Below, one piece after another: positions 4,533-19,068 of a stretch of 64,000 nt of DNA. The position numbers were made by a program, and so were the translations under genes. Source of the stretch: Enterobacteria phage Aplg8; the sequence record NC_054902.1, one strand, 5' to 3'. The notes beneath the pieces are model-generated. The model searched no databases. It was not told where the DNA came from and saw nothing but the letters and a program-made list of their open reading frames with translations. Numbering within the stretch: the first letter of the stretch is position 1; each line of letters starts with the position of its first letter.

Positions 4533-4990
4533 TAATATGCCTGCAAAACGAATTTAAAGTTATCAGCCAACATACGGTTCATTTCTTCAAGTGTTTGATA
4601 CTCAGAATGATGATTACGAGTAAACGCCAAAGCTAACTGACCTTTACCAAATCCTGTCGTCAGAGGTTTCATCTTAGAAGCAGGCAGATAAAATACTGTG
4701 TATGGAACATTGTTATTTGCAATAGTACGTGCAAGCTGAGACCGACGTTGACGAATATGACTTAGAACTGCACTGAATCCTTGCTTAGAACGCTGATTAC
4801 CTACATAAAATCGTGCAGACACGCATGGATTACTAAATGGACGACCATCTAATTTACTTACTAAAAAGTAAAATCCAGGTTTAGATAAAATATCTTTATG
4901 CGGAGTTCCCAAAAACCATTCACCACCCTTGATTGTACCAATAACAGTAGCACCTGCGTTGTTCAGATCAGTAACAGTCATATATTTCAT
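4532..4990 (-). CDS. ndd: Ndd nucleoid disruption protein
   Basis: 152 aa from [13 protein letters not shown] with GAGGAAA SD; position after stp as in T4; track ORF start trimmed to SD-supported ATG. Confidence 0.8.
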
Positions 4991-5048
4991 ATTAATTTCC
5001 TCTAAATTATTTTCTACTCCAAGGCCGCATGAATACGCGGCCATTAAA

Positions 5049-5264
5049 TTAATCGTCACAGTCGACGCTCAATTCCCAAAACTCTTCTACGGTATAAGTT
5101 TCAGTATCATTTTCAATACAGAAACGTTCATTACTGTTATTTGCTAAAGTAGCATTAACTGTCGGTTTCTCGCTAGTGCTCTTAAGAGGTGAAATACGAA
5201 TTAACTGATCACCGTTATCTAAACAGAAAATTTCACCAACTTTTACATCTTTAAAACTTTTCAT
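5049..5264 (-). CDS. hypothetical protein (ndd.1 position)
   Basis: 71-aa ORF, acidic C-terminus. Confidence 0.5.
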
Positions 5265-5756: not shown

Positions 5757-5941
5757 AACTTTTTTAAAAATATTCGTAATAAATGTGAATACCAACTACT
5801 ACCGCTGAAACCTGTGCAACCCACCACGCACAAGCAATAAGTACAGAATTCAAAATTTTCATAATAACCTCATCACAAAAGTAAATGTTAAACAAATTAC
5901 TGGAATACTAATTAACCAAACAAAACACCACCATAGTGAAC

Positions 5942-6205
5942 TCATAACTCAATCTCAGCGATTTTCATTTCATTACTATTAATAGCCGCTTTAAGACTAT
6001 CTGAAAGAATTACATTCCAGTGGTCATTCATATGACCATTAACTAAGCGTGTAATTTCTTCAGGAGTTGAAAAATAAGGCTGATCAGACTCCCAATGCGA
6101 TAATCCTAAGCGAGTATAAATCATGCCTTCATCATCACTAGAATATTCAACTGACACAAACTCATCAGTTATTTTATGTTTAGCGTAATAAAATTTAAAT
6201 TTCAT
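5942..6205 (-). CDS. hypothetical protein
   Basis: 87 aa from MKFKFYYAKHK; upstream part of track ORF is promoter/leader read-through. Confidence 0.5.
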   Translation of the reverse strand: MKFKFYYAKHKITDEFVSVEYSSDDEGMIYTRLGLSHWESDQPYFSTPEEITRLVNGHMNDHWNVILSDSLKAAINSNEMKIAEIEL

Positions 6206-7149: not shown

Positions 7150-8088
7150 TTATTTAAATTGTTCAGTAACGTCTTCAACTACTTCGTATTGGCAGGTACG
7201 CATTTTAGCATCGTTGTAATCAATCGGAATTGATACTACATCACGTGGATGTACTTTAACTTTTACAACTCGGCTAGTTGAACTGCCAAAGTGACGAATA
7301 TAAGATTTAGAACACACATGCAGACCACGAGAACAAGTTTGTGTATCATCGTCATTCACACGAGTACGCGGCATTTTAACTACTTTACCAGGACTGTTAT
7401 CAAAGGTGTTTGAGTGACAGTCAAAGTAGTTGTCACGAACTACTTTCCAAGCATAGAAGTAACCATCTTCTGTAATTTCAATATCGTTTGCTACCAAGAA
7501 ATCAAAGAGTCGAGATACCGCTTTCTGGCTTGGGTTTTCCAGCAGATTTTCCAAGAACGGAAAATAAAATTCAAAGTTTTCACCTTTTTCCATCGAATCG
7601 AGAATACGATCAACTAAACCAGACCGTAATTCGATATTTTGATAGAACAAGCTTCCGCCTTCAATTCGAACATCGCCGGAAATATATTTTTCAACAGCGC
7701 GACGAACATTAATTTTTTGTGCCGCTTCTTCCAGCTTATCCGCTACAAGCAGATTAAGAATTTCCTGGAAGTTTGAATGAGTATTAGGAGTTGCGTTATA
7801 AGTTACACCGTCAACAGTAATTGAAATGAATTTTTTAGATGCATTCCAAATAATGTCAGATTTAGCAACTGGAGCAATAACTTCATCGCTATTAACTTTA
7901 ACTGTAATATCACCGCTAATAGTAACTTTAGGGTGTTTAGCTTCTTCAGCATTTTTCAAAACACGACGGATTGTGTCAACCGATACATCCTTCCAATAAG
8001 CTAATTCCTGCTGAGTGTAATTACCGCTTGAATACAGTTTAACAATTTCAGCTTGTTCGTTTTTGGTCAGGCATTTAATATTGTACAT
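7150..8088 (-). CDS. rIIB: rIIB protein
   Basis: 312 aa (T4 rIIB length); adjacent to rIIA; MYNIKCLTKNEQAEIVKLY N-terminus. Confidence 0.9.
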   Translation of the reverse strand: MYNIKCLTKNEQAEIVKLYSSGNYTQQELAYWKDVSVDTIRRVLKNAEEAKHPKVTISGDITVKVNSDEVIAPVAKSDIIWNASKKFISITVDGVTYNATPNTHSNFQEILNLLVADKLEEAAQKINVRRAVEKYISGDVRIEGGSLFYQNIELRSGLVDRILDSMEKGENFEFYFPFLENLLENPSQKAVSRLFDFLVANDIEITEDGYFYAWKVVRDNYFDCHSNTFDNSPGKVVKMPRTRVNDDDTQTCSRGLHVCSKSYIRHFGSSTSRVVKVKVHPRDVVSIPIDYNDAKMRTCQYEVVEDVTEQFK

Positions 8089-10546: not shown

Positions 10547-12366
10547 TACTGGCTCATCCATTCTTTGCGAAGGTCAGCATTATCTCCCATGAGCATTTCA
10601 AAAAGCTCTTTCCAGTTCTCAGGAAGTTTAACAACATCATATACTGGATTTTGAATCATCTCACGATATTCAGATTTTTCCAAAGAGCCAAGTCCTTTAA
10701 TATAACGGATGCTATGTTTAGGTAGAGCATCTTTGGCACTCTCATATTCAGCGACTGTATAAAACCATTCTTGTTTTTTACCGACCTGAGCGATGATTAC
10801 AGGAGTTTTGACAAAGCGAATTCGTCCTTGCTCAAACAATTCTGGCCAATTACTAAAAAACCCGAGCAGAGAAGGATAAATGCTTCCTAGACCATCATGG
10901 TCAGCATCAGTCATAATAGCAATATTGCGATAATTCAAGTTTTCAGCTTTTTCACCAAGAACTAGACCAGTGATTGCGCAAATATCAAATAGTTCTTTGT
11001 TTTTAAGCATATCGGCATATGACATACCCCAGCTATTAAGAACTTTACCGCGCAATGGATAACCACCATGAAGTTCTTTATCGCGAACATCAATAAGATA
11101 TCCGATAGCTGAATCACCCTCAGTCAAGAACAATGTAGTGTCAGCATCTTTACCGCAAAGATTCGCTTTGATATGTTTGTGAACCTTAGCTTTAGAAGCC
11201 TTTTTAGCTGCTTTAGTTTCTGCTGCTTTTTCTGCCGCCAATTTACGAGCCAAAGCAGCTTCAATAATCGGCATTAAAATTGCTTCATTATTTAGAATAG
11301 CGCGTGAAATCTTTTTAGCATCAAGTTGAATATGACTACGGATTTCACCAAATGGAGAAGTCAAACGCTCTTTAGTTTGAGAATCAAATCGCATGTTTTT
11401 CATATCACGAACAAACATAACGATAGTCAAACATTCTTTGACACGCGCTTTGGTTACATCAATTTTGAACTTACGTTTGATTTGTGGAATAAGGTCTTCA
11501 CAAATATCATCCATAACACAGTCAATGTGATGGCCACCATTCTTAGTATGAATGTTATTGACGTATGTTAATTGACGAAAACCATCCGGTGAACGACCAA
11601 CCGCAATAGAACAATTTTCTTGTTCTTGAACGATAGCATGTTCATCATATTGGCGTGCGTATTTCTTAAAATTACCCTGAACCTTTTTACCATTAAAGGT
11701 AAATTGAATATCAGGATAAACAACAGCAAGTGTTTGGAGACGATCTAGTGTAATGTCAAGATAAACTTGGGACAGCTCATTAGTTTCAAATGACATAAAA
11801 TCAGGAATGAAAGTAACACGAGTTCCTTTCCATTTTCCAGGAATATCTTCCCATGATTTATTTTCCATGCCATTTGAGCAACGAACTACAATATTATTTT
11901 GACCATCGCCAGTTTCACCGACAAACATCACAGAAAAAATGTTTGTCAAACTAGAACCAACACCGTTCATACCGCCAGTGACGCGTTCTTTATCATCACC
12001 GAAGTTACCACCTGCTTTTGGAATAGTCCATGCGGCAACAGGACCAGGAATTTCTTCACCGGTAGGTGTTTTAACCATCGCTTGTGGAATACCGCGACCG
12101 TTATCTTCAACTGTTACTTGATTGTTTTTAATAGTAACATTAATTTTATTTGCGAATTTAAACTTAGTACGAATACCTTCATCTACTGAGTTATCGATAA
12201 TTTCATCAATAAGCTTAACAAGACCAGGTACATACTGAACACTTTCCCATTTACCAAACAGAAAGCGCTCATGCATTTCATTAGCAGAAGAGCCAATGTA
12301 CATGCCACTACGCTTTTTGATATGTTCAATATCGCTCAGAATTTTAATTTCATTCTTAATCATCAC
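10546..12366 (-). CDS. 39: DNA topoisomerase II large subunit (GyrB-like), uninterrupted gene 39 (39+60 fused)
   Basis: 606 aa; N-terminal GHKL ATPase matches T4 gp39, C-terminal 120 aa match T4 gp60 (...NVAIMTDADHDGLGSIYPSLLGFFSNWPELF...) in one frame. Confidence 0.93.
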   Translation of the reverse strand: MMIKNEIKILSDIEHIKKRSGMYIGSSANEMHERFLFGKWESVQYVPGLVKLIDEIIDNSVDEGIRTKFKFANKINVTIKNNQVTVEDNGRGIPQAMVKTPTGEEIPGPVAAWTIPKAGGNFGDDKERVTGGMNGVGSSLTNIFSVMFVGETGDGQNNIVVRCSNGMENKSWEDIPGKWKGTRVTFIPDFMSFETNELSQVYLDITLDRLQTLAVVYPDIQFTFNGKKVQGNFKKYARQYDEHAIVQEQENCSIAVGRSPDGFRQLTYVNNIHTKNGGHHIDCVMDDICEDLIPQIKRKFKIDVTKARVKECLTIVMFVRDMKNMRFDSQTKERLTSPFGEIRSHIQLDAKKISRAILNNEAILMPIIEAALARKLAAEKAAETKAAKKASKAKVHKHIKANLCGKDADTTLFLTEGDSAIGYLIDVRDKELHGGYPLRGKVLNSWGMSYADMLKNKELFDICAITGLVLGEKAENLNYRNIAIMTDADHDGLGSIYPSLLGFFSNWPELFEQGRIRFVKTPVIIAQVGKKQEWFYTVAEYESAKDALPKHSIRYIKGLGSLEKSEYREMIQNPVYDVVKLPENWKELFEMLMGDNADLRKEWMSQ

Positions 12367-12390
12367 TTATCCTCGTTTGGTTTCGGGAAT

Positions 12391-12417
12391 ATTATACTCC
12401 GGTAATCATAAAGCTAA
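12391..12417 (-). promoter_or_regulatory. MotA-dependent middle promoter upstream of gene 39
   Basis: minus-strand TTAGCTTTA (MotA-box-like) - 12 bp - TATAAT. Confidence 0.5.
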
Positions 12418-12433
12418 AGGCCCGAAGGCCTTT
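12416..12433 (-). other. UUCG-tetraloop RNA hairpin (AAAGGCC UUCG GGCCUUU)
   Basis: perfect 7-bp inverted repeat with cgaa loop on plus strand, intercistronic. Confidence 0.65.
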
Positions 12434-12702
12434 TATTTAAAACGAATAGTTGAATCCTTAAAGAACAGCCCAGAACATACTGTTCCTTCTACTTTCTGCC
12501 CAGTAGGTCCAATAGCACGAAATCCAGTATGTTGGAAATCATTTTCAGAACAACCAAACCAATTATATCCAGTGATTTCAATATTAGTAAAACCACTTGA
12601 AGATAAAACTTTGGTTGCATTATCAGCATCAGTACATCCTGCTAAAGACACTGCTAATACTAATGCCGCGATAGAACGATTAATATATTTCATAATTTTC
12701 AC
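12433..12702 (-). CDS. putative lipoprotein
   Basis: 89 aa; signal peptide with lipobox LAGC near N-terminus. Confidence 0.55.
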   Translation of the reverse strand: MKIMKYINRSIAALVLAVSLAGCTDADNATKVLSSSGFTNIEITGYNWFGCSENDFQHTGFRAIGPTGQKVEGTVCSGLFFKDSTIRFK

Positions 12703-13070
12703 TCAAATTTAATGGCTTGAAGAAGACTAATAATTCTCAAGCGACTTCTTTCATCTTTAACTGTAAAAGAAAGAGGGTCACCAGATTTCATAGTAATAGT
12801 ACATTCAAAATCAAAATCTTCTGTGACTTCTTCGAAGAAGTCAAATTCTTCATCATAAATTAGAACATTACTCTGACAACTATGAAGAATTTTTCCATCA
12901 TTTCCAGATGCTGTACTAATCATTGTAACATTATGACCTTTCATATCTTCAACGATAAATTCACTAGTCAATATTACGGCATTAATAGAACTATTCCTAT
13001 TACTAGCAGAAAGTAGATATTTCTGTTCTTCACCTTCACGAATACGATATTTCTTACCGATTTTAAACAT
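12699..13070 (-). CDS. hypothetical protein
   Basis: 123-aa ORF, 4-nt overlap with downstream gene. Confidence 0.55.
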   Translation of the reverse strand: MFKIGKKYRIREGEEQKYLLSASNRNSSINAVILTSEFIVEDMKGHNVTMISTASGNDGKILHSCQSNVLIYDEEFDFFEEVTEDFDFECTITMKSGDPLSFTVKDERSRLRIISLLQAIKFE

Positions 13071-13072
13071 AA

Positions 13073-13249
13073 TTACCCTTTAAGTAAGTCGTAAAATCCA
13101 CCATTCACATGCTTAGGAGCAGAAGGCCGACGAATAGACAGACGATGACATTTAGGGCAAACATCATTTTCTCGTTCAGAAATCTTTTTAATTTTTTCAT
13201 ATTCATGCCCGCAATCTTCGGATTGGCATTTATAATCATACATTGGCAT
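13073..13249 (-). CDS. FmdB-like zinc-ribbon micro-protein (58 aa)
   Basis: hand-translated MPMYDYKCQSEDCGHEYEKIKKISERENDVCPKCHRLSIRR...; two CxxC pairs. Confidence 0.5.
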   Translation of the reverse strand: MPMYDYKCQSEDCGHEYEKIKKISERENDVCPKCHRLSIRRPSAPKHVNGGFYDLLKG

Positions 13250-13251
13250 AA

Positions 13252-13677
13252 TTATTCCTTAAAGTGAGCTTTCAACATCTGATACAAGGACCATGCATGT
13301 TCATTATTTTCAATAGTAACTTTCATGACTGGGAATTCTGTGAAATCTTCTATTTGTTCTTGCTCTTTCTCTTCCTGCTCTTGCTCTTCAACTGCCTGAT
13401 ATGGATTTTCCACTTCATCAAAGAACCCAGCTTCGTTAGTAGAAAGCCAAATAAAGTTTTCGTCAAGGATATCACCATGTGTTGCATATCCAACTGTGCC
13501 AGTAGATGTCACAATTTTAGTAGGACGACCAAGATGGTCAACATCTAAAATTTTAAAAGGATGCATACCTAAACGGCGTGCATAGATTCCGTTATCAGTA
13601 TGATCTTTAATAAAATTTTCTTGAGCTTGTTTATTTTTAAATTGATACCATTTATTAACTTCAAATCTAATAGCCAT
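13252..13677 (-). CDS. goF: GoF-like protein (mRNA metabolism modulator)
   Basis: 141 aa, matching T4 goF length and position; acidic [11 protein letters not shown] tract. Confidence 0.55.
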
Positions 13678-13892
13678 TAATAAATTTCCTTCCAGTAAGT
13701 TGTACCGTCTTCAGTGATTTCACGGAATACACCATAAATCGGTTGTTTATCACCAACCTTTTCATACACATAAACCGAAGTCAAGTGAGTAAACTTGATG
13801 GTGTGTTCCTTTTGAACTACTACCAAATCTGGATCGAATAATACATCTTCAAATTCGTCATTAGTGCAATTCTGAACAATTTTACGTTTCAT
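13677..13892 (-). CDS. cef: Cef-like protein (modifier of suppressor tRNAs)
   Basis: 71 aa from MKRKIVQNC with GAGGAAA SD; size and position match T4 cef. Confidence 0.5.
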
Positions 13893-13905
13893 TACAATTT
13901 CCTCA

Positions 13906-14187
13906 TTAATTGAACAGTGGAGCAATGCGTTTCAGAAGAGTAGCAGCACCTTTGGCGAATTTTACATCATGAAAAACAGTTTCTTCTTCCGTTACAACAC
14001 GAGCTTTAATGTTTTCACAATCCCAATTTTTGCGAACAATCTTCAAAAGCTGCAGTAAATCTTTACATTCAGCAATATCGATAACACATCCACGAGAATC
14101 TTCCATTATCGCACGATAACCGTAAGCCATACCATAATTGTTGAAAGATTGCTCGATGATAATTAAGTTTTCCATTTTATTCTCCAA
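13906..14187 (-). CDS. hypothetical protein
   Basis: 93-aa ORF downstream of an early promoter-like element. Confidence 0.5.
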   Translation of the reverse strand: MENKMENLIIIEQSFNNYGMAYGYRAIMEDSRGCVIDIAECKDLLQLLKIVRKNWDCENIKARVVTEEETVFHDVKFAKGAATLLKRIAPLFN

Positions 14188-14282
14188 GTTGTTTTCTGTA
14201 TCAGTAGTTGATATTGATATAGTACCATAATCAACTACTGATGTATATAGTTTTATGAAAAAATTTTAAACTTTATGCAAAT

Positions 14283-14702
14283 TTATGCTAAAGCTGCTTC
14301 GCACCATTTTTTAATTTGGAATTCAGGAACTACCATGAACTGGCCTGCAAAAACAATATTGTAGAGCTTGACACCATCTTCTACCCAACGGTCCGAAATA
14401 AAACCAGCGACTTGATTCGTTGTCCATGGAGTTCCATCTGTTGCCGCCGCAATTGTGAATTTATGGTCTTTTACAACTAAAACTGAAGAACAAAGTTTCC
14501 ATTTAAATGCGCTTTCTTCTGGCTCAATGAACTGACTTGAGACATAACCAATGTTACCATCAGCGTCACGAACTTTAACCTCGTTACGACCAAAAACTGG
14601 ATCACTTACAGAAAGAACTTCAACCAGCTTTCCTGCAACTTTAGAACGAGAAGCAACGGATACATATACGTAATCACCAGTAGAGAGATTTACAATATTC
14701 AT
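14283..14702 (-). CDS. hypothetical protein, member of three-gene paralogue family
   Basis: 139 aa; C-terminal motif FISDRWVEDGVKLYNIVFAGQFMVVPE shared with next two ORFs. Confidence 0.6.
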   Translation of the reverse strand: MNIVNLSTGDYVYVSVASRSKVAGKLVEVLSVSDPVFGRNEVKVRDADGNIGYVSSQFIEPEESAFKWKLCSSVLVVKDHKFTIAAATDGTPWTTNQVAGFISDRWVEDGVKLYNIVFAGQFMVVPEFQIKKWCEAALA

Positions 14703-14711
14703 AATAATTCC

Positions 14712-15185
14712 TTAAGCTTTACGAGGAGAAGCATAACGAGTGATTTCAGATTCTTCAACAACCCGGAAGTCACCTAAAAATACAATATTGTATAGCTTTT
14801 TACCGTCTTCAATCCATTGGTCTGTGATGAAGCCACACATCCTATCAGTTTTACTTGGACCAGCGAAATCATCAATATAATCGAATTCTTCATCAGTTAC
14901 AAATTCAACGCCTTTACACAACGCCCATTTAAATTGTGCATTAGACTCAGTGGATTCAACTTCTTCAACAGAAGCAAAATGAGAGCTAACACGAGTTTCC
15001 AGAAATTTAGGACTTACGTAAGCGTACTGAGTTTCAGTTTTTCCAGAACTAGGAATGATTCGAACTTTAACTTCTATAACACGACCAGTACCATTAGTAC
15101 GAAGTCCTACCACTTCAACTAGACGACCTGCAGCTTTAGAACGAGATGCAGACGATACACGCTTAATTTCACCGATAGTAATCAT
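14712..15185 (-). CDS. hypothetical protein, paralogue family member
   Basis: 157 aa; C-terminal motif FITDQWIEDGKKLYNIVFLGDFRVV. Confidence 0.6.
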   Translation of the reverse strand: MITIGEIKRVSSASRSKAAGRLVEVVGLRTNGTGRVIEVKVRIIPSSGKTETQYAYVSPKFLETRVSSHFASVEEVESTESNAQFKWALCKGVEFVTDEEFDYIDDFAGPSKTDRMCGFITDQWIEDGKKLYNIVFLGDFRVVEESEITRYASPRKA

Positions 15186-15257
15186 AATTTTTCTCTCTTT
15201 GCTGTTAAGATTTATTCTCCATGAGAGCCATTATAACAGGCTCTCTATAAAGTAAAC

Positions 15258-15752
15258 TTAATTAAGGATATTAATTACTGCACTACGTGGAACTACACTA
15301 AAATCACCTGCATGAACAACGTTCAGAAGTTCAACACCGTCTTCAATCCACTGATCAGTTACCCATCCACTCACTGGACCTGCGAACGGACGTCGAATTG
15401 AAACAGCTTTACACAACAAATCAGTAGGCTCAATAGGCTTAACCAGAGTACCGTACATACAAGCGATATCCATATCAATACAGATGTCTTTAACGGGTTC
15501 TACTTCTTCAATCAACAGTTCAAAGTCGGTGCTTGGAAGGGCGGTAGTAGAAATTGTACCGTATGAATTTTTAATTTCTAAGAATAACCAAGGGCCTTCA
15601 GCTTGTTTGATGAAGTTAACAATAGTGAAACTATTACCTTGAGTGGCGCCTAAAATTTCACAAAACTTTTCATAAGCTCGCACTGAAGCACCATACCAGT
15701 TGATTTGCTTTTCGTCTTTCAGGATGTAAGTAGCTGTAGTACTGATATTCAT
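15258..15752 (-). CDS. hypothetical protein, paralogue family member (MotB position)
   Basis: 164 aa; C-terminal motif WVTDQWIEDGVELLNVVHAGDFSVVP. Confidence 0.6.
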   Translation of the reverse strand: MNISTTATYILKDEKQINWYGASVRAYEKFCEILGATQGNSFTIVNFIKQAEGPWLFLEIKNSYGTISTTALPSTDFELLIEEVEPVKDICIDMDIACMYGTLVKPIEPTDLLCKAVSIRRPFAGPVSGWVTDQWIEDGVELLNVVHAGDFSVVPRSAVINILN

Positions 15753-15764
15753 GATGTTTTCCCC

Positions 15765-16268
15765 TTAATCTAAGGTAATAAAGCCTTTTAATTCGGCATG
15801 TGACTTGCGGAACATTACTTGATGACCGCCAATGATAACTTGGTCATCAGGTACTTCGTATACAGCGAGATAAAATCCTTTAGAAGCTAATTCTTCACGC
15901 TCTTCTCGTGTGAACCATCTCATCATATCATATTCGCTAGCGAAAGCAAAATGATAAAGAGCTATAAACCATCCTGGAATATAGTGATCTACGCCTACAT
16001 ATTCTTCTTTCTCAAAATTAGTATTAATTGCTATATTAGCATTTTTAACTAATAATTTGTCTTCATGCGGCACAGGAATTCTTTTATTATCATTACTATG
16101 ATGCATAAAATTAGGTCTGTCATAACCTACGTGTAATAACCACTCTTCACTCCATGAATCTATTATACTCCTGTACGGAGTTATTTGAACACAAAGATCT
16201 CGACGTATTGTTATAGCATCTTCATAATTAAGAATACTAAATGATGATTCAACACGATAAATTTTCAT
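15765..16268 (-). CDS. hypothetical protein
   Basis: 167 aa from MKIYRVESSF; track ORF N-terminus is upstream leader. Confidence 0.5.
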   Translation of the reverse strand: MKIYRVESSFSILNYEDAITIRRDLCVQITPYRSIIDSWSEEWLLHVGYDRPNFMHHSNDNKRIPVPHEDKLLVKNANIAINTNFEKEEYVGVDHYIPGWFIALYHFAFASEYDMMRWFTREEREELASKGFYLAVYEVPDDQVIIGGHQVMFRKSHAELKGFITLD

Positions 16269-16331
16269 TTTATTATCCTCAGTAGCTATGGTGTTATAAT
16301 ACCACAACTAACCGAGGAAGTAAACAACTTT

Positions 16332-17015
16332 TTATCGTTTTGTTGGAAGAGACAGAGGATCGCACTCTTCCTCTGACGGAGCATCTTCAAGACCCATAGC
16401 GTATCGCAAAGCATACTTCATCATCAGGATGTCTTTCGCACAGTCATGAATAGAATCATGCGCAACGAATCCATCTAAGGTTCCCTTTGGAAGAGGACAT
16501 GTTGTCATATCACGAACAAGCAGAAGTGCTTCAATTCTGGTACGAATATCACGCTGATTCCAGAATTTACATGGTTCTAACTTAAATGTGTCAAGCTCAT
16601 TCTCAGAAACACCATTAAGACGTTGAATATCACGAATGAGATCGACTAAAATTGGAAAATCAAACGACATTCCACGGCACCAGCCTTGAGATTTCCAAGG
16701 ATCGATATTATGTGCATTGATGTAATCATTAAATTTTGCAATACCGTCGATAGTGCTTACATCTTCATCGGATGGTGCAATATTTTTTCGAGCTTCAGGA
16801 GATTGATTTTTCCACCATTCGATAGTGCTTTTAGTAAAAAGACGATGTCCTTTTTGGCTTTTTAAATCAAATTTGATTTTAATGCCACGTGAAACTAATT
16901 CATCAAACGTTTCAACTACTTCTGGGTTAGGGTCAAAAGCAATTACAGCCAAATCAATAACAGCTGCTTTTTCACCGCTTCCCATTGTTTCAAAATCTAT
17001 AATAAAATCAAACAT
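16332..17015 (-). CDS. dexA: DexA exonuclease A (DnaQ-like 3'-5' exonuclease)
   Basis: 227 aa (T4 DexA length); DEDD-type exonuclease motifs (FDFETMG..., HDSIHDCAKD); position next to dda. Confidence 0.85.
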   Translation of the reverse strand: MFDFIIDFETMGSGEKAAVIDLAVIAFDPNPEVVETFDELVSRGIKIKFDLKSQKGHRLFTKSTIEWWKNQSPEARKNIAPSDEDVSTIDGIAKFNDYINAHNIDPWKSQGWCRGMSFDFPILVDLIRDIQRLNGVSENELDTFKLEPCKFWNQRDIRTRIEALLLVRDMTTCPLPKGTLDGFVAHDSIHDCAKDILMMKYALRYAMGLEDAPSEEECDPLSLPTKR

Positions 17016-17257
17016 TAAATTTTCCTTGCTAAATCGCGAATTTGACCTACAGTATAATCTTGGATATAAACTTTATTAATAGGCTCATCAATAAATTTTG
17101 CCATAGATTCAATATCTTTTTGCATCTCTTCAAGACTGTATATTATCTTTAAAGCTTTTTCGCGAATAGTAATATTTTCAGGACCAGAATTTTTCTCAAT
17201 GACAGCTTTAACATTTGTCATAAGAGATTTAAACTGCTGCAAACTTAATTCAATCAT
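17015..17257 (-). CDS. small hypothetical protein (tandem paralogue a)
   Basis: 80 aa from MIELSLQQF; start overlaps stop of upstream ORF (ATGATTGA). Confidence 0.45.
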   Translation of the reverse strand: MIELSLQQFKSLMTNVKAVIEKNSGPENITIREKALKIIYSLEEMQKDIESMAKFIDEPINKVYIQDYTVGQIRDLARKI

Positions 17258-17510
17258 TAATAACCGCCTTATAAAGATGGCTAATTTCACCTAAAATGTA
17301 ATCACTGATTGTAACAGTTTTTACTTCACCACAAAAGAATTCTAACGCAATTAAATCTCGTTCAATTTCTTCTAATTGAAGCATTAACTTGCCAGATTCA
17401 ATTTTTACATTTCTACGATTTTTACTATAAGCTATTTCATAAATTTCGCTCACTTTATCTTGAAGCAGATAAAACTGGTCTTTAGTTATTTCCACGAATA
17501 GCTTCCTCAA
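17250..17510 (-). CDS. small hypothetical protein (tandem paralogue b)
   Basis: 86 aa; shares QF...LEE...DY..G.I pattern with ORF a. Confidence 0.45.
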   Translation of the reverse strand: MRKLFVEITKDQFYLLQDKVSEIYEIAYSKNRRNVKIESGKLMLQLEEIERDLIALEFFCGEVKTVTISDYILGEISHLYKAVIND

Positions 17511-17742
17511 ATTTAATTAGTAATTTACAGACACTTTCATCTAGTGTAATTACCGTATCTGTATTACTGTGATATGATTGTTTTTCAATTCGTTTAATTG
17601 CTAATATAGTATCACTTATAAGATAAAGCTTATGAAGGAGCTCAGCTCCTGTTACCATAACATCGAGATTATCTTGCTTATTAGTATGCTTCCTTATACC
17701 ATCTATTAGACGATTTAAATATTTTGAATTGATGTTAATCAT
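17482..17742 (-). CDS. small hypothetical protein
   Basis: 86-aa ORF between dda and dexA. Confidence 0.45.
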   Translation of the reverse strand: MININSKYLNRLIDGIRKHTNKQDNLDVMVTGAELLHKLYLISDTILAIKRIEKQSYHSNTDTVITLDESVCKLLIKFEEAIRGNN

Positions 17743-17748
17743 ATAGCC

Positions 17749-19068
17749 TCACACATAAAACACATCATAACGACCACGTGTTACACCAACATAAAGAAGT
17801 TGTTGAGCTAGTTCAGCATCTGCATAATGAATACAAGGCGTATAAATGAAAGCACGGTCTACAGACATACCCTGAGCTTTATGGAATGTTGATGCAGGAA
17901 GTGCTTTCACTTTACTAAACTGTGATTTAGCATCCCAAAAATCACTCCACGGAGCCTTTCCGCCTTTATTCCAATTTTTATAAGTTTCTGCCGTTTTACC
18001 TAAAAACAGGTTAAACTTATATAGCTCTTCATCAGATGAAATTATTTTAATCTTTTCACGATAATATTCATCATCGCCGTAAGTTTCTACTGTTAAATCC
18101 CAATGACGAATTAAGTATTCTCCAGGAACACCACGAGCTTTAACAAACGTTGATGTATACTCTGCTTCTATAATACGAACTAATTGTCCATTATTAAAAA
18201 TAATTTCTGATACAGGCTTTCCATCAATTTTATATGTTTTAATTAATGGTTCCTGCATTACAATAATTTCACCAACAATAAAATCTTTATCAGTTTCAAA
18301 AATCTTTTTACGAATAATATTGTTTAACTTGTCAACAGATTTATTCGTAAATGCCATTACGCGATTTTCAAACAAATCATCTAGTGATTTGACGATTGAA
18401 AAATAATTTACCATAAAATCGCGTAAAGCGGTATCACCAGTAAATCCACGTACTCCATGCCCGTCAACAACTTTATCATAAATCCACTTACCGTTACGAA
18501 CGTCAGTAGCTACATCAATAATAGGAGCATTACTGCGTTTAACTTCAGTGAGTTCACACTGATAAAAATCTTTATGCGTAAAGAATGGACTGATATAAGC
18601 AGTATTTTCTCCTGGGTCAACAGGTCTAATTTGCTTATTATCACCTATTCCAATTATAGTACACCACGGCGGGATAGTTGAAAGCAGAATTTTAAATAGC
18701 TTTCTATCATACATTGACACTTCATCGCAGATTAATACTCTGCATTTAGCTAAATCTGGTACTTCCTTCTGCTCAAAGAGGACATTTTCTTCATATGTTA
18801 CCGGGTTAATTTTGAGAATACTGTGAATAGTACTCGCTTCTTTCCCTGATAGTTTTGAAAGAATCTTTTTAGCTGCATGAGTAGGAGCTGCTAAAATAAT
18901 GCCAGTTTCGCCCGTAGATATTAAGGCTTCAATGATGAACTTAGTAAGAGTAGTCTTACCAGTACCAGCAGGTCCATTAATAGTTACATGATGTTTCTTT
19001 TCTTTAATAGCCCTCATAACAATGTTAAAGGCATTTTTCTGGCCTTCAGTCAAATCATCAAATGTCAT
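17749..19068 (-). CDS. dda: Dda DNA helicase (SF1B)
   Basis: 439 aa (T4 Dda length); Walker A GPAGTGKT; helicase motifs. Confidence 0.92.
   Translation of the reverse strand: MTFDDLTEGQKNAFNIVMRAIKEKKHHVTINGPAGTGKTTLTKFIIEALISTGETGIILAAPTHAAKKILSKLSGKEASTIHSILKINPVTYEENVLFEQKEVPDLAKCRVLICDEVSMYDRKLFKILLSTIPPWCTIIGIGDNKQIRPVDPGENTAYISPFFTHKDFYQCELTEVKRSNAPIIDVATDVRNGKWIYDKVVDGHGVRGFTGDTALRDFMVNYFSIVKSLDDLFENRVMAFTNKSVDKLNNIIRKKIFETDKDFIVGEIIVMQEPLIKTYKIDGKPVSEIIFNNGQLVRIIEAEYTSTFVKARGVPGEYLIRHWDLTVETYGDDEYYREKIKIISSDEELYKFNLFLGKTAETYKNWNKGGKAPWSDFWDAKSQFSKVKALPASTFHKAQGMSVDRAFIYTPCIHYADAELAQQLLYVGVTRGRYDVFYV

Follow-up and report, generated by a model that had tools for sequence, protein, structure and literature searches.

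T4 MotB binds DNA tightly and without sequence preference, whether the DNA is modified or unmodified, copurifies with H-NS and StpA, and alters the footprint of H-NS on DNA; when overexpressed, it de-represses part of the H-NS regulon, and it is toxic to E. coli and increases burst size two-fold (Patterson-West et al. 2018 and 2021; PMC6070864, PMC7827196). MotB resembles T7 gp5.5 and T4 Arn in its early interference with H-NS–DNA complexes (PMC7827196), but the three have neither sequence nor mechanism in common. The target of gp5.5 is the oligomerisation domain of H-NS, Arn is a DNA mimic, and MotB binds DNA itself. Patterson-West et al. (Viruses 2021, PMC7827196) aligned 102 phage homologues and described a shared C-terminal domain combined with swapped N-terminal domains. 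According to these authors, either MotB domain could bind DNA, motB and motB.1 are probably related by duplication of one into the other, and several genomes have multiple motB or motB.1 genes. Kim et al. (2025, PMC12152347) classed the MotB.1 N-terminal domain with those of GoF and Frd.2, as LSm-like barrels; T4 GoF and Frd.2 have this barrel in common with MotB.1, as reported there, but both lack the MotB C-terminal module. In the same study, MotB.1 showed no phenotype and, in a 119-aa form, no effect in one reporter assay, and AlphaFold3 yielded no confident homo-oligomer for T4 MotB.1.

We compared these systems with three consecutive minus-strand ORFs in a window of 64,000 nucleotides, the whole stretch of DNA from Enterobacteria phage Aplg8 (NC_054902.1) that was analysed. 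ORF A (14283–14702, 139 aa), ORF B (14712–15185, 157 aa) and ORF C (15258–15752, 164 aa) were recovered at exactly these coordinates, and the genes called across this region all lie on the minus strand. Plus-strand ORFs overlapping the three genes (e.g. 14817–15122) were set aside because the minus-strand ORFs match annotated genes and conserved families. On one side, the ORFs are flanked by orf93 (13906–14187, a 93-aa ORF), cef (13677–13925, Pfam T4_Cef), goF (13252–13677) and orf123 (12699–13070), the latter two matching phrog_622; on the other side lie a MotB.2 homologue (15765–16307, 93% identical to T4 MotB.2 over 15765–16268) and, beyond it, dexA (16332–17015). The resulting order, cef–orf93–ORF A–ORF B–ORF C–motB.2–dexA, parallels the T4 order cef–motB–motB.1–motB.2–dexA, which bears out the assignment of this locus to the motB region in the preliminary description. 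RB51 has the same five-gene arrangement as the window, with the labels RB51ncORF010c, motB and motB.1. The 3.2-kb stretch around the three ORFs shares 99.5% DNA identity with Shigella phage Sf23 (Tequatrovirus), whose record annotates all three genes with identical boundaries, and about 700 records of T4-like phages match this stretch. The three ORFs are early genes of a T4-like phage (Tequatrovirus) and occupy the cef–dexA interval, a stretch that varies among such genomes. In T4, the cef–motB spacer is a remnant of orf93 after an internal deletion of ~200 nt, and the sequence 3′ of T4 motB equals that 3′ of ORF A (spacer, 98% identical).

The preliminary description had reported that all three ORFs end in a near-identical motif, and this holds: the module core reads GFISDRWVEDGVKLYNIVFAGQFMVVPE in ORF A (aa 100–127, 14322–14405), GFITDQWIEDGKKLYNIVFLGDFRVVEE in ORF B (aa 118–145, 14751–14834) and GWVTDQWIEDGVELLNVVHAGDFSVVPR in ORF C (aa 129–156, 15285–15368), each on the minus strand. 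In Smith-Waterman comparisons of the C-terminal parts, the observed scores corresponded to z = 32 (A–B), 18.5 (A–C) and 22.5 (B–C), and none of the 2000 shuffles reached them. Neither low-complexity sequence nor failure on re-translation, which the preliminary description had itself raised against the motif, was encountered: the ORFs re-translate, and the 30-residue core contains 16–17 distinct amino acids, with an entropy of 3.7–3.8 bits. Pfam PF17613 (motB) scored 72.1 bits against ORF A, 139.6 bits against ORF B and 35.0 bits against ORF C, all above the curated gathering cut-off of 25 bits, and the match of ORF C is confined to profile positions 78–153, which correspond to the C-terminal domain. 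ORFs A and B belong to phrog_1671 (“MotB-like transcriptional regulator”; ORF A, E = 1e-50, full length), and ORF C to phrog_2333 (E = 1e-82, full length). With z-scores of 18–32, no shuffle among 2000 as high, 16–17 residue types in 30 positions and the PF17613 threshold passed by each ORF, a chance or low-complexity resemblance can be dismissed outright. A profile of the module run against a six-frame translation of the whole 64 kb found three copies only, those in ORFs A, B and C.

On the basis of sequence comparison, we assign ORF B to MotB, ORF A to an extra, diverged copy of MotB, and ORF C to MotB.1, all within PF17613. The features of MotB proper are present here: a KOW-like N-terminal domain with the signature V-S-x-x-S-R-S-K-x-A-G joined to the C-terminal domain, and a location on the early strand with cef to one side and motB.1/motB.2/dexA to the other. 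ORF B, 46% identical to T4 MotB over its full length, is the positional orthologue, and both proteins run from a KOW-like N-terminal domain through a linker to the C-terminal domain. The MotB-type paralogue ORF A is shorter; it is 37% identical to T4 MotB, 100% identical to RB51 ORF010c (RB51ncORF010c) and equivalent to Sf23 gp130. Most of the acidic linker is absent from ORF A, whose N-terminal domain is not basic. As T4 lacks a counterpart of ORF A, the window phage has two tandem MotB-type genes where T4 has one. ORF C is the orthologue of T4 MotB.1 (P39415; category 2 of PMC7827196), sharing 46% identity with its intact 143-aa form, with the same position directly upstream of motB, the same C-terminal domain (PTDLLCKAV...GWVTDQWIEDGVELLNVVHAGDFSVVPRSAV) and a non-KOW N-terminal domain; unlike T4 MotB.1, it carries a 21-residue insertion with a DMDIACMYGTLVKP motif between its two domains.

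The N-terminal halves had been described as different in all three ORFs. This is true of ORF C, whose N-terminal half is unrelated to those of ORFs A and B (z = 0.2 and −1.0), but not of ORFs A and B, which share homologous N-terminal halves (z = 12.9 against shuffles) and are homologous over their full length (BLASTP, 39% identity over 152 residues). Likewise, the proposed domain shuffling around the module applies to the wider family but not to ORF A versus ORF B, which are full-length MotB-type paralogues. As for whether T4 motB.1, motB and motB.2 show the same relationship, MotB and MotB.1 share the module, whereas MotB.2 lacks it; the MotB.2 homologue of the window (15765–16307) gave no match to the module. 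The three-ORF finding is a rediscovery of the MotB/MotB.1 family already described in Pfam, PHROGs and two papers, and adds little to it; the additions made here are a SH3/Tudor-like model of the shared domain, a dN/dS contrast between domains, a frameshift in the T4 reference and a short motif of varying position.

Across the wider family, domain combinations show that the C-terminal domain has been joined to different N-terminal partners by recombination. Over 35 family members, GWVTDQWIEDGVELLNVVHAGDFSVVPRSAV is almost invariant, while the N-terminal parts change completely. The MotB.1-type C-terminal domain stands behind at least five N-terminal arrangements: one LSm-like domain (143–169 aa), a short motif plus one LSm-like domain (177–183 aa), two LSm-like domains (241–250 aa), a MotB-type KOW domain (125–199 aa, in Klebsiella and Enterobacter phages), and almost no N-terminal part (35–43 aa). 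Intermediate forms, among them P0267, P0270 and P0272, show that what chiefly sets MotB-type apart from MotB.1-type C-terminal domains is a variable hairpin inserted between strands 1 and 2. Natural chimeras combine a B-type N-terminal domain with an A-type C-terminal domain (P0085) or a B-type front with an A-type C-terminal end, the crossover lying inside the core motif (P0084), and in one fusion (P0048) the N-terminal 17 residues of MotB.2 are followed by the C-terminal 26 of MotB.1. Searching 50,697 phage records, we found the module at 1679 places in 779 records, with one to three copies per genome; among the records listed, hosts or phage names are almost all enterobacterial (Escherichia, Shigella, Klebsiella, Yersinia, Salmonella, Enterobacter, Citrobacter and Edwardsiella). 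When 1.84 billion cluster representatives were searched exhaustively with a profile, 28 proteins were recovered, and nothing pointed to the module beyond the described T4-like phage family. Two of the 28 matches, a 361-aa repeat protein and a 2408-aa protein, lack the domain layout of the family and look spurious. The short motif, phi-D-x-D-phi-A-x-M-Y-x-x-x-phi-K-P, was matched as a regular expression in 92 of 273 sampled proteins with the module core, and its position varies: it adjoins the C-terminal domain in some proteins, whereas in others it lies at the very start of the protein or separates two LSm-like domains. Its single instance in the window is DMDIACMYGTLVKPI in the linker of ORF C (aa 93–107, 15432–15476, minus strand; pLDDT <50).

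Comparison of ORF C with its RB51 orthologue gave dN 0.008 and dS 0.33 for the C-terminal domain against dN 0.257 and dS 0.74 for the N-terminal domain and linker, that is, dN/dS of ~0.02 versus 0.35; the C-terminal domain is under very strong purifying selection. Within the window, the paralogue cores show pS of 0.69–0.81, near saturation, and pN of only 0.21–0.29, which argues for an old duplication and for protein-level selection, not recent gene conversion, as what has kept the copies alike. It might be supposed instead that neighbouring genes were recently duplicated or converted and that no functional module is being selected, since the genes stand in tandem, T4-like phages recombine readily, and at least one natural chimera (P0084) has its crossover inside the module. 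Against the same pS and pN values, a module DNA identity of only ~70% among the paralogues with a longest identical run of ~15 nt, and the retention of one protein motif across 779 phage genomes including those of Klebsiella, Enterobacter and Edwardsiella phages, we regard such a recent origin as scarcely credible. Decay of ORF A, ORF C or both into non-functional remnants of motB duplications is hardly more plausible and is judged very improbable. T4 does without ORF A, loss of motB.1 has no laboratory phenotype (PMC12152347), and truncated or fused forms occur in databases (P0019, P0047 and P0048); yet ORFs A and C are intact, each with a Shine-Dalgarno sequence, ORF A differs from its RB51 orthologue by a single synonymous change, the C-terminal domain of ORF C has a dN/dS of ~0.02, and the 164-aa form represents a cluster of 181 member sequences.

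Each ORF is preceded by a Shine-Dalgarno sequence; ORF A (AAGGA) starts 9 nt past the stop of ORF B, and ORF C 12 nt past that of motB.2. With such short gaps, co-transcription is likely. A putative early promoter and a predicted hairpin occupy the motB.1–motB spacer (15205–15261, minus strand). Read by eye, the 72-nt spacer before ORF B contains GTTTAC (15252–15257), 16 nt and TATAAT (15230–15235), an arrangement that resembles a T4 early promoter. The TATAAT lies in the loop of the hairpin, whose inner stem spans 15223–15245 (RNA fold −19.2 kcal/mol, z = −3.5); the T4 motB.1–motB spacer has the same fold with a different stem sequence (z = −3.7). A further hairpin with a 13-bp stem lies 3′ of ORF A, before orf93 (14200–14242, minus strand; −22.3 kcal/mol, z = −5.4). 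A generic sigma-70/terminator scan did not rise above background, with 24 promoter-like sites compared with 19.2 ± 3.7 in shuffles, and missed the GTTTAC...TATAAT pair, and Rfam gave no match over 12000–18000.

Each of the three proteins is predicted to consist of two small beta-barrel domains and a disordered linker, with the same C-terminal barrel of ~55–75 residues. ORF A comprises a KOW-like N-terminal domain (aa 1–60, 14523–14702) and a C-terminal domain (aa 64–139, 14286–14513); ORF B, a basic, KOW-like N-terminal domain (aa 1–64, 14994–15185), a disordered linker (aa 65–83, 14937–14993) and a C-terminal domain (aa 84–157, 14715–14936); and ORF C, a beta-rich N-terminal domain, LSm-like in the literature (aa 1–85, 15498–15752), a disordered linker (aa 86–107, 15432–15497) and a C-terminal domain (aa 108–164, 15261–15431), all on the minus strand. 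AlphaFold2 models of ORFs B and C built from family alignments are confident (mean pLDDT 82 and 80, respectively), both with two beta domains and a linker of pLDDT <50 (aa 66–82 in ORF B, aa 86–105 in ORF C). The C-terminal domain is five-stranded in each model, and a three-residue helix falls between strands 4 and 5, with none between strands 3 and 4, an order that is SH3-like and not that of an OB-fold. Thus, the C-terminal domain models as a SH3/Tudor-like five-stranded barrel, rather than as the OB-fold predicted in 2021: the modelled features are those of SH3-like small beta-barrels (five strands, a short 3-10 helix before strand 5, Tudor and KOW structural neighbours), and not those of SCOPe b.40.4.5 (strands 1-2-3, helix, strands 4-5, OB structural neighbours). 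To the SH3-like barrels of NusG/Spt5 KOW, Tudor, PWWP, chromo and BAH domains, the resemblance is one of fold only, at 6–21% identity, and we found no sequence or profile relationship to NusG/Spt5 KOW or to Tudor/PWWP/chromo/BAH barrels. A PDB sequence search with ORF B gave no match at E ≤ 1, and significant E-values in a BFVD fold search were restricted to family members. Derivation of the C-terminal domain by internal duplication of the N-terminal domain of MotB or MotB.1 was considered and rejected (hhalign probabilities of 0.1–1.3%). The neighbouring orf123 showed a weak match (E = 0.0013) to the N-terminal-domain part of phrog_2333.

In ORF B, the N-terminal domain is basic (net charge +6, pI 10.4) and the C-terminal domain acidic (−5, pI 4.6). 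Overall, the C-terminal domains have pI values of 4.6–7.8, those of ORFs B and C being acidic at pI 4.6, and the N-terminal domain of ORF A has a net charge of −1 and a pI of 5.2. The split charge of ORF B, taken with the Tudor-like fold of the C-terminal domain and the extreme constraint on that domain, suggests nucleic-acid contact at the N-terminus and a protein surface at the C-terminus. The variable N-terminal domain would supply the nucleic-acid contact, with the basic KOW-like domain of MotB on DNA, and the N-terminal domain of MotB.1 may contact RNA. The invariant, acidic-to-neutral C-terminal domain would be the common effector, most likely a surface for protein–protein interaction or self-association. 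Through this domain, nucleic acid could be coated cooperatively, or every paralogue could dock on one shared partner from the host or the phage. This mechanism is weakened by the ORF A N-terminal domain, which is not basic, and by the lack of a confident oligomer prediction for T4 MotB.1. The functional data on MotB come from T4 MotB only, to which ORF B is 46% and ORF A 37% identical. Taken as a whole, we consider it highly probable that ORFs A and B are MotB proteins and ORF C is MotB.1, with N-terminal domains that would contact nucleic acid and a C-terminal domain that would act as their common effector.

Alternatively, the shared C-terminal domain of all three proteins might be a cold-shock-like OB-fold that binds DNA non-specifically, with the N-terminal domains only modulating this activity. 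HHpred placed the MotB C-terminal domain (aa 69–149) in SCOPe b.40.4.5, with archaeal eIF5A closest (PMC7827196), and MotB does bind DNA without sequence specificity (PMC6070864). We nevertheless think this unlikely, since the AlphaFold2 models of ORFs B and C show the SH3-like and not the OB order of strands and helix, the C-terminal domains of both are acidic at pI 4.6, and a profile of 23 C-terminal-domain sequences found no PDB sequence at E ≤ 10. A narrower version of the protein-interaction role, in which the C-terminal barrel binds peptides in Tudor/SH3-like fashion instead of nucleic acid and its ligand is the phi-D-x-D-phi-A-x-M-Y...K-P motif, found in disordered stretches of numerous MotB.1-type proteins, or a basic tail of H-NS or StpA, is a long shot at present.

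The T4 reference records NC_000866.4 and AF158101.6 contain one extra G in the motB.1 module (near position 7305 of NC_000866.4), reading ATTGGAAG in place of ATTGAAG. The annotated T4 MotB.1 thus ends in GWVTDQWIGRWR at a stop after 119 aa, inside the module, and the remainder of the module (EDGVELLNVVHAGEYSVVPRSAVVAILN, followed by a stop) lies in the next frame. Thirteen other records of T4, T4T, RB55 and RB59 align over 508 nt rather than 509. In MT984581, the absence of this G is the sole difference, and motB.1 encodes an intact 143-aa protein; this intact sequence (P0159) represents 256 contigs in the protein collection. Kim et al. worked with a MotB.1 synthesised from NC_000866.4, a protein that ran at 13.8 kDa (PMC12152347), and with a construct of this origin, MotB.1 was tested without most of its conserved domain. 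The negative findings published for MotB.1 may thus apply to a protein in which three of the five strands of the most conserved domain are missing.

For the family, the acidic, SH3/Tudor-like C-terminal domain directs experiments to a role in protein interaction, and the contrast between its strong constraint and the fast-changing, swappable N-terminal domains marks the part to target in a search for the common partner. If the peptide-binder reading were true, MotB, MotB.1 and the extra copy would assemble by domain–motif contacts into mixed DNA- and RNA-binding coats, and N-terminal swaps would redirect one shared docking module.

The T4 reference genome (NC_000866.4) contains an extra single G within motB.1 (ATTGGAAG versus ATTGAAG), located at 2792-2830 of the T4 locus L002, or approximately 7291-7330 of the record, with its counterpart at 15330-15345 in the window. 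Because of this base the annotated T4 MotB.1 ends after 119 aa, partway through the conserved module; the extra G is absent from 13 other T4-type records, and MT984581 encodes an intact MotB.1 of 143 aa. The 2025 study of LSm-like domains had motB.1 synthesised from the T4 reference sequence (PMC12152347), so the truncated form was what it assayed.

We also compared the T4 cef/motB spacer (L002 1984-2153) with window 14168-14272 and 13900-13967. The 170-nt spacer is a remnant of a 93-aa ORF (window 13906-14187), with ~200 nt lost internally. Downstream of ORF A, the extra MotB-type copy, lies a hairpin-containing stretch that matches the sequence following T4 motB at 98% identity, indicating that T4 motB fills the slot of ORF B (MotB) and ORF A together. 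The motB.1/motB spacer likewise harbors a hairpin (window 15205-15261 and L002 2643-2725, both minus strand), and an early-promoter-like site has its TATAAT in the hairpin loop. This hairpin is retained in T4, where the stem sequence differs (GGGACC/GGUCCC against GAGAGCC/GGCUCUC), and in both genomes the spacer folds better than shuffled sequences (z of about -3.6).

In the window, goF (13252-13677) and a 123-aa ORF (12699-13070) each match phrog_622 strongly and are therefore paralogues. At the end of the N-terminal domain the two carry a similar motif, FFDEV / FDFFEEV, which resembles the FELLIEEV of ORF C (MotB.1). The 123-aa ORF additionally showed weak matches to the N-terminal region of the PHROG for MotB.1 (E = 0.0013) and to Pfam FRD2 (E = 0.025). 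This pattern fits the published GoF/Frd.2/MotB.1 LSm-like family (PMC12152347). Two database names look like annotation artefacts inherited from gene names or neighbouring genes: "dextranase", the RefSeq name of the 81-aa DexA.2 (5850-6095, 4644-4889 and 4866-5111 in phage loci L001, L002 and L003, respectively), and "putative adenylribosylating enzyme" for P0217, a MotB.1-family protein of a Hafnia phage.

The disordered linker of ORF C (aa 93-107; window 15432-15476, minus strand) carries a conserved short motif, phi-D-x-D-phi-A-x-M-Y...K-P, which could serve as a docking peptide. It occurs in 92 of 273 sampled family proteins, including P0172, P0177, P0201, P0241 and P0270-P0278, at widely different placements relative to the domains; the sections consulted of the two MotB/MotB.1 family papers (PMC7827196, PMC12152347) yielded no mention of it.

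Recombinants occur in nature. P0084 and P0085 combine a MotB-type front with an ORF-A-type C-terminal end, the crossover in P0084 falling within the core motif, and a 43-aa ORF of phage BYEP01 (P0048) is a fusion in which the N-terminus of MotB.2 (MKIYRVESSFSILDYED) is followed by the C-terminus of MotB.1 (EDGVELLNVVH...). In certain Klebsiella and Enterobacter phages, one gene encodes both a KOW N-terminal domain of the MotB type and a C-terminal domain of the MotB.1 type, fused in a single protein (P0008, P0043, P0201, P0241 and P0271-P0278), suggesting that this single gene represents either an ancestral form or a recombinant of the two T4 genes.
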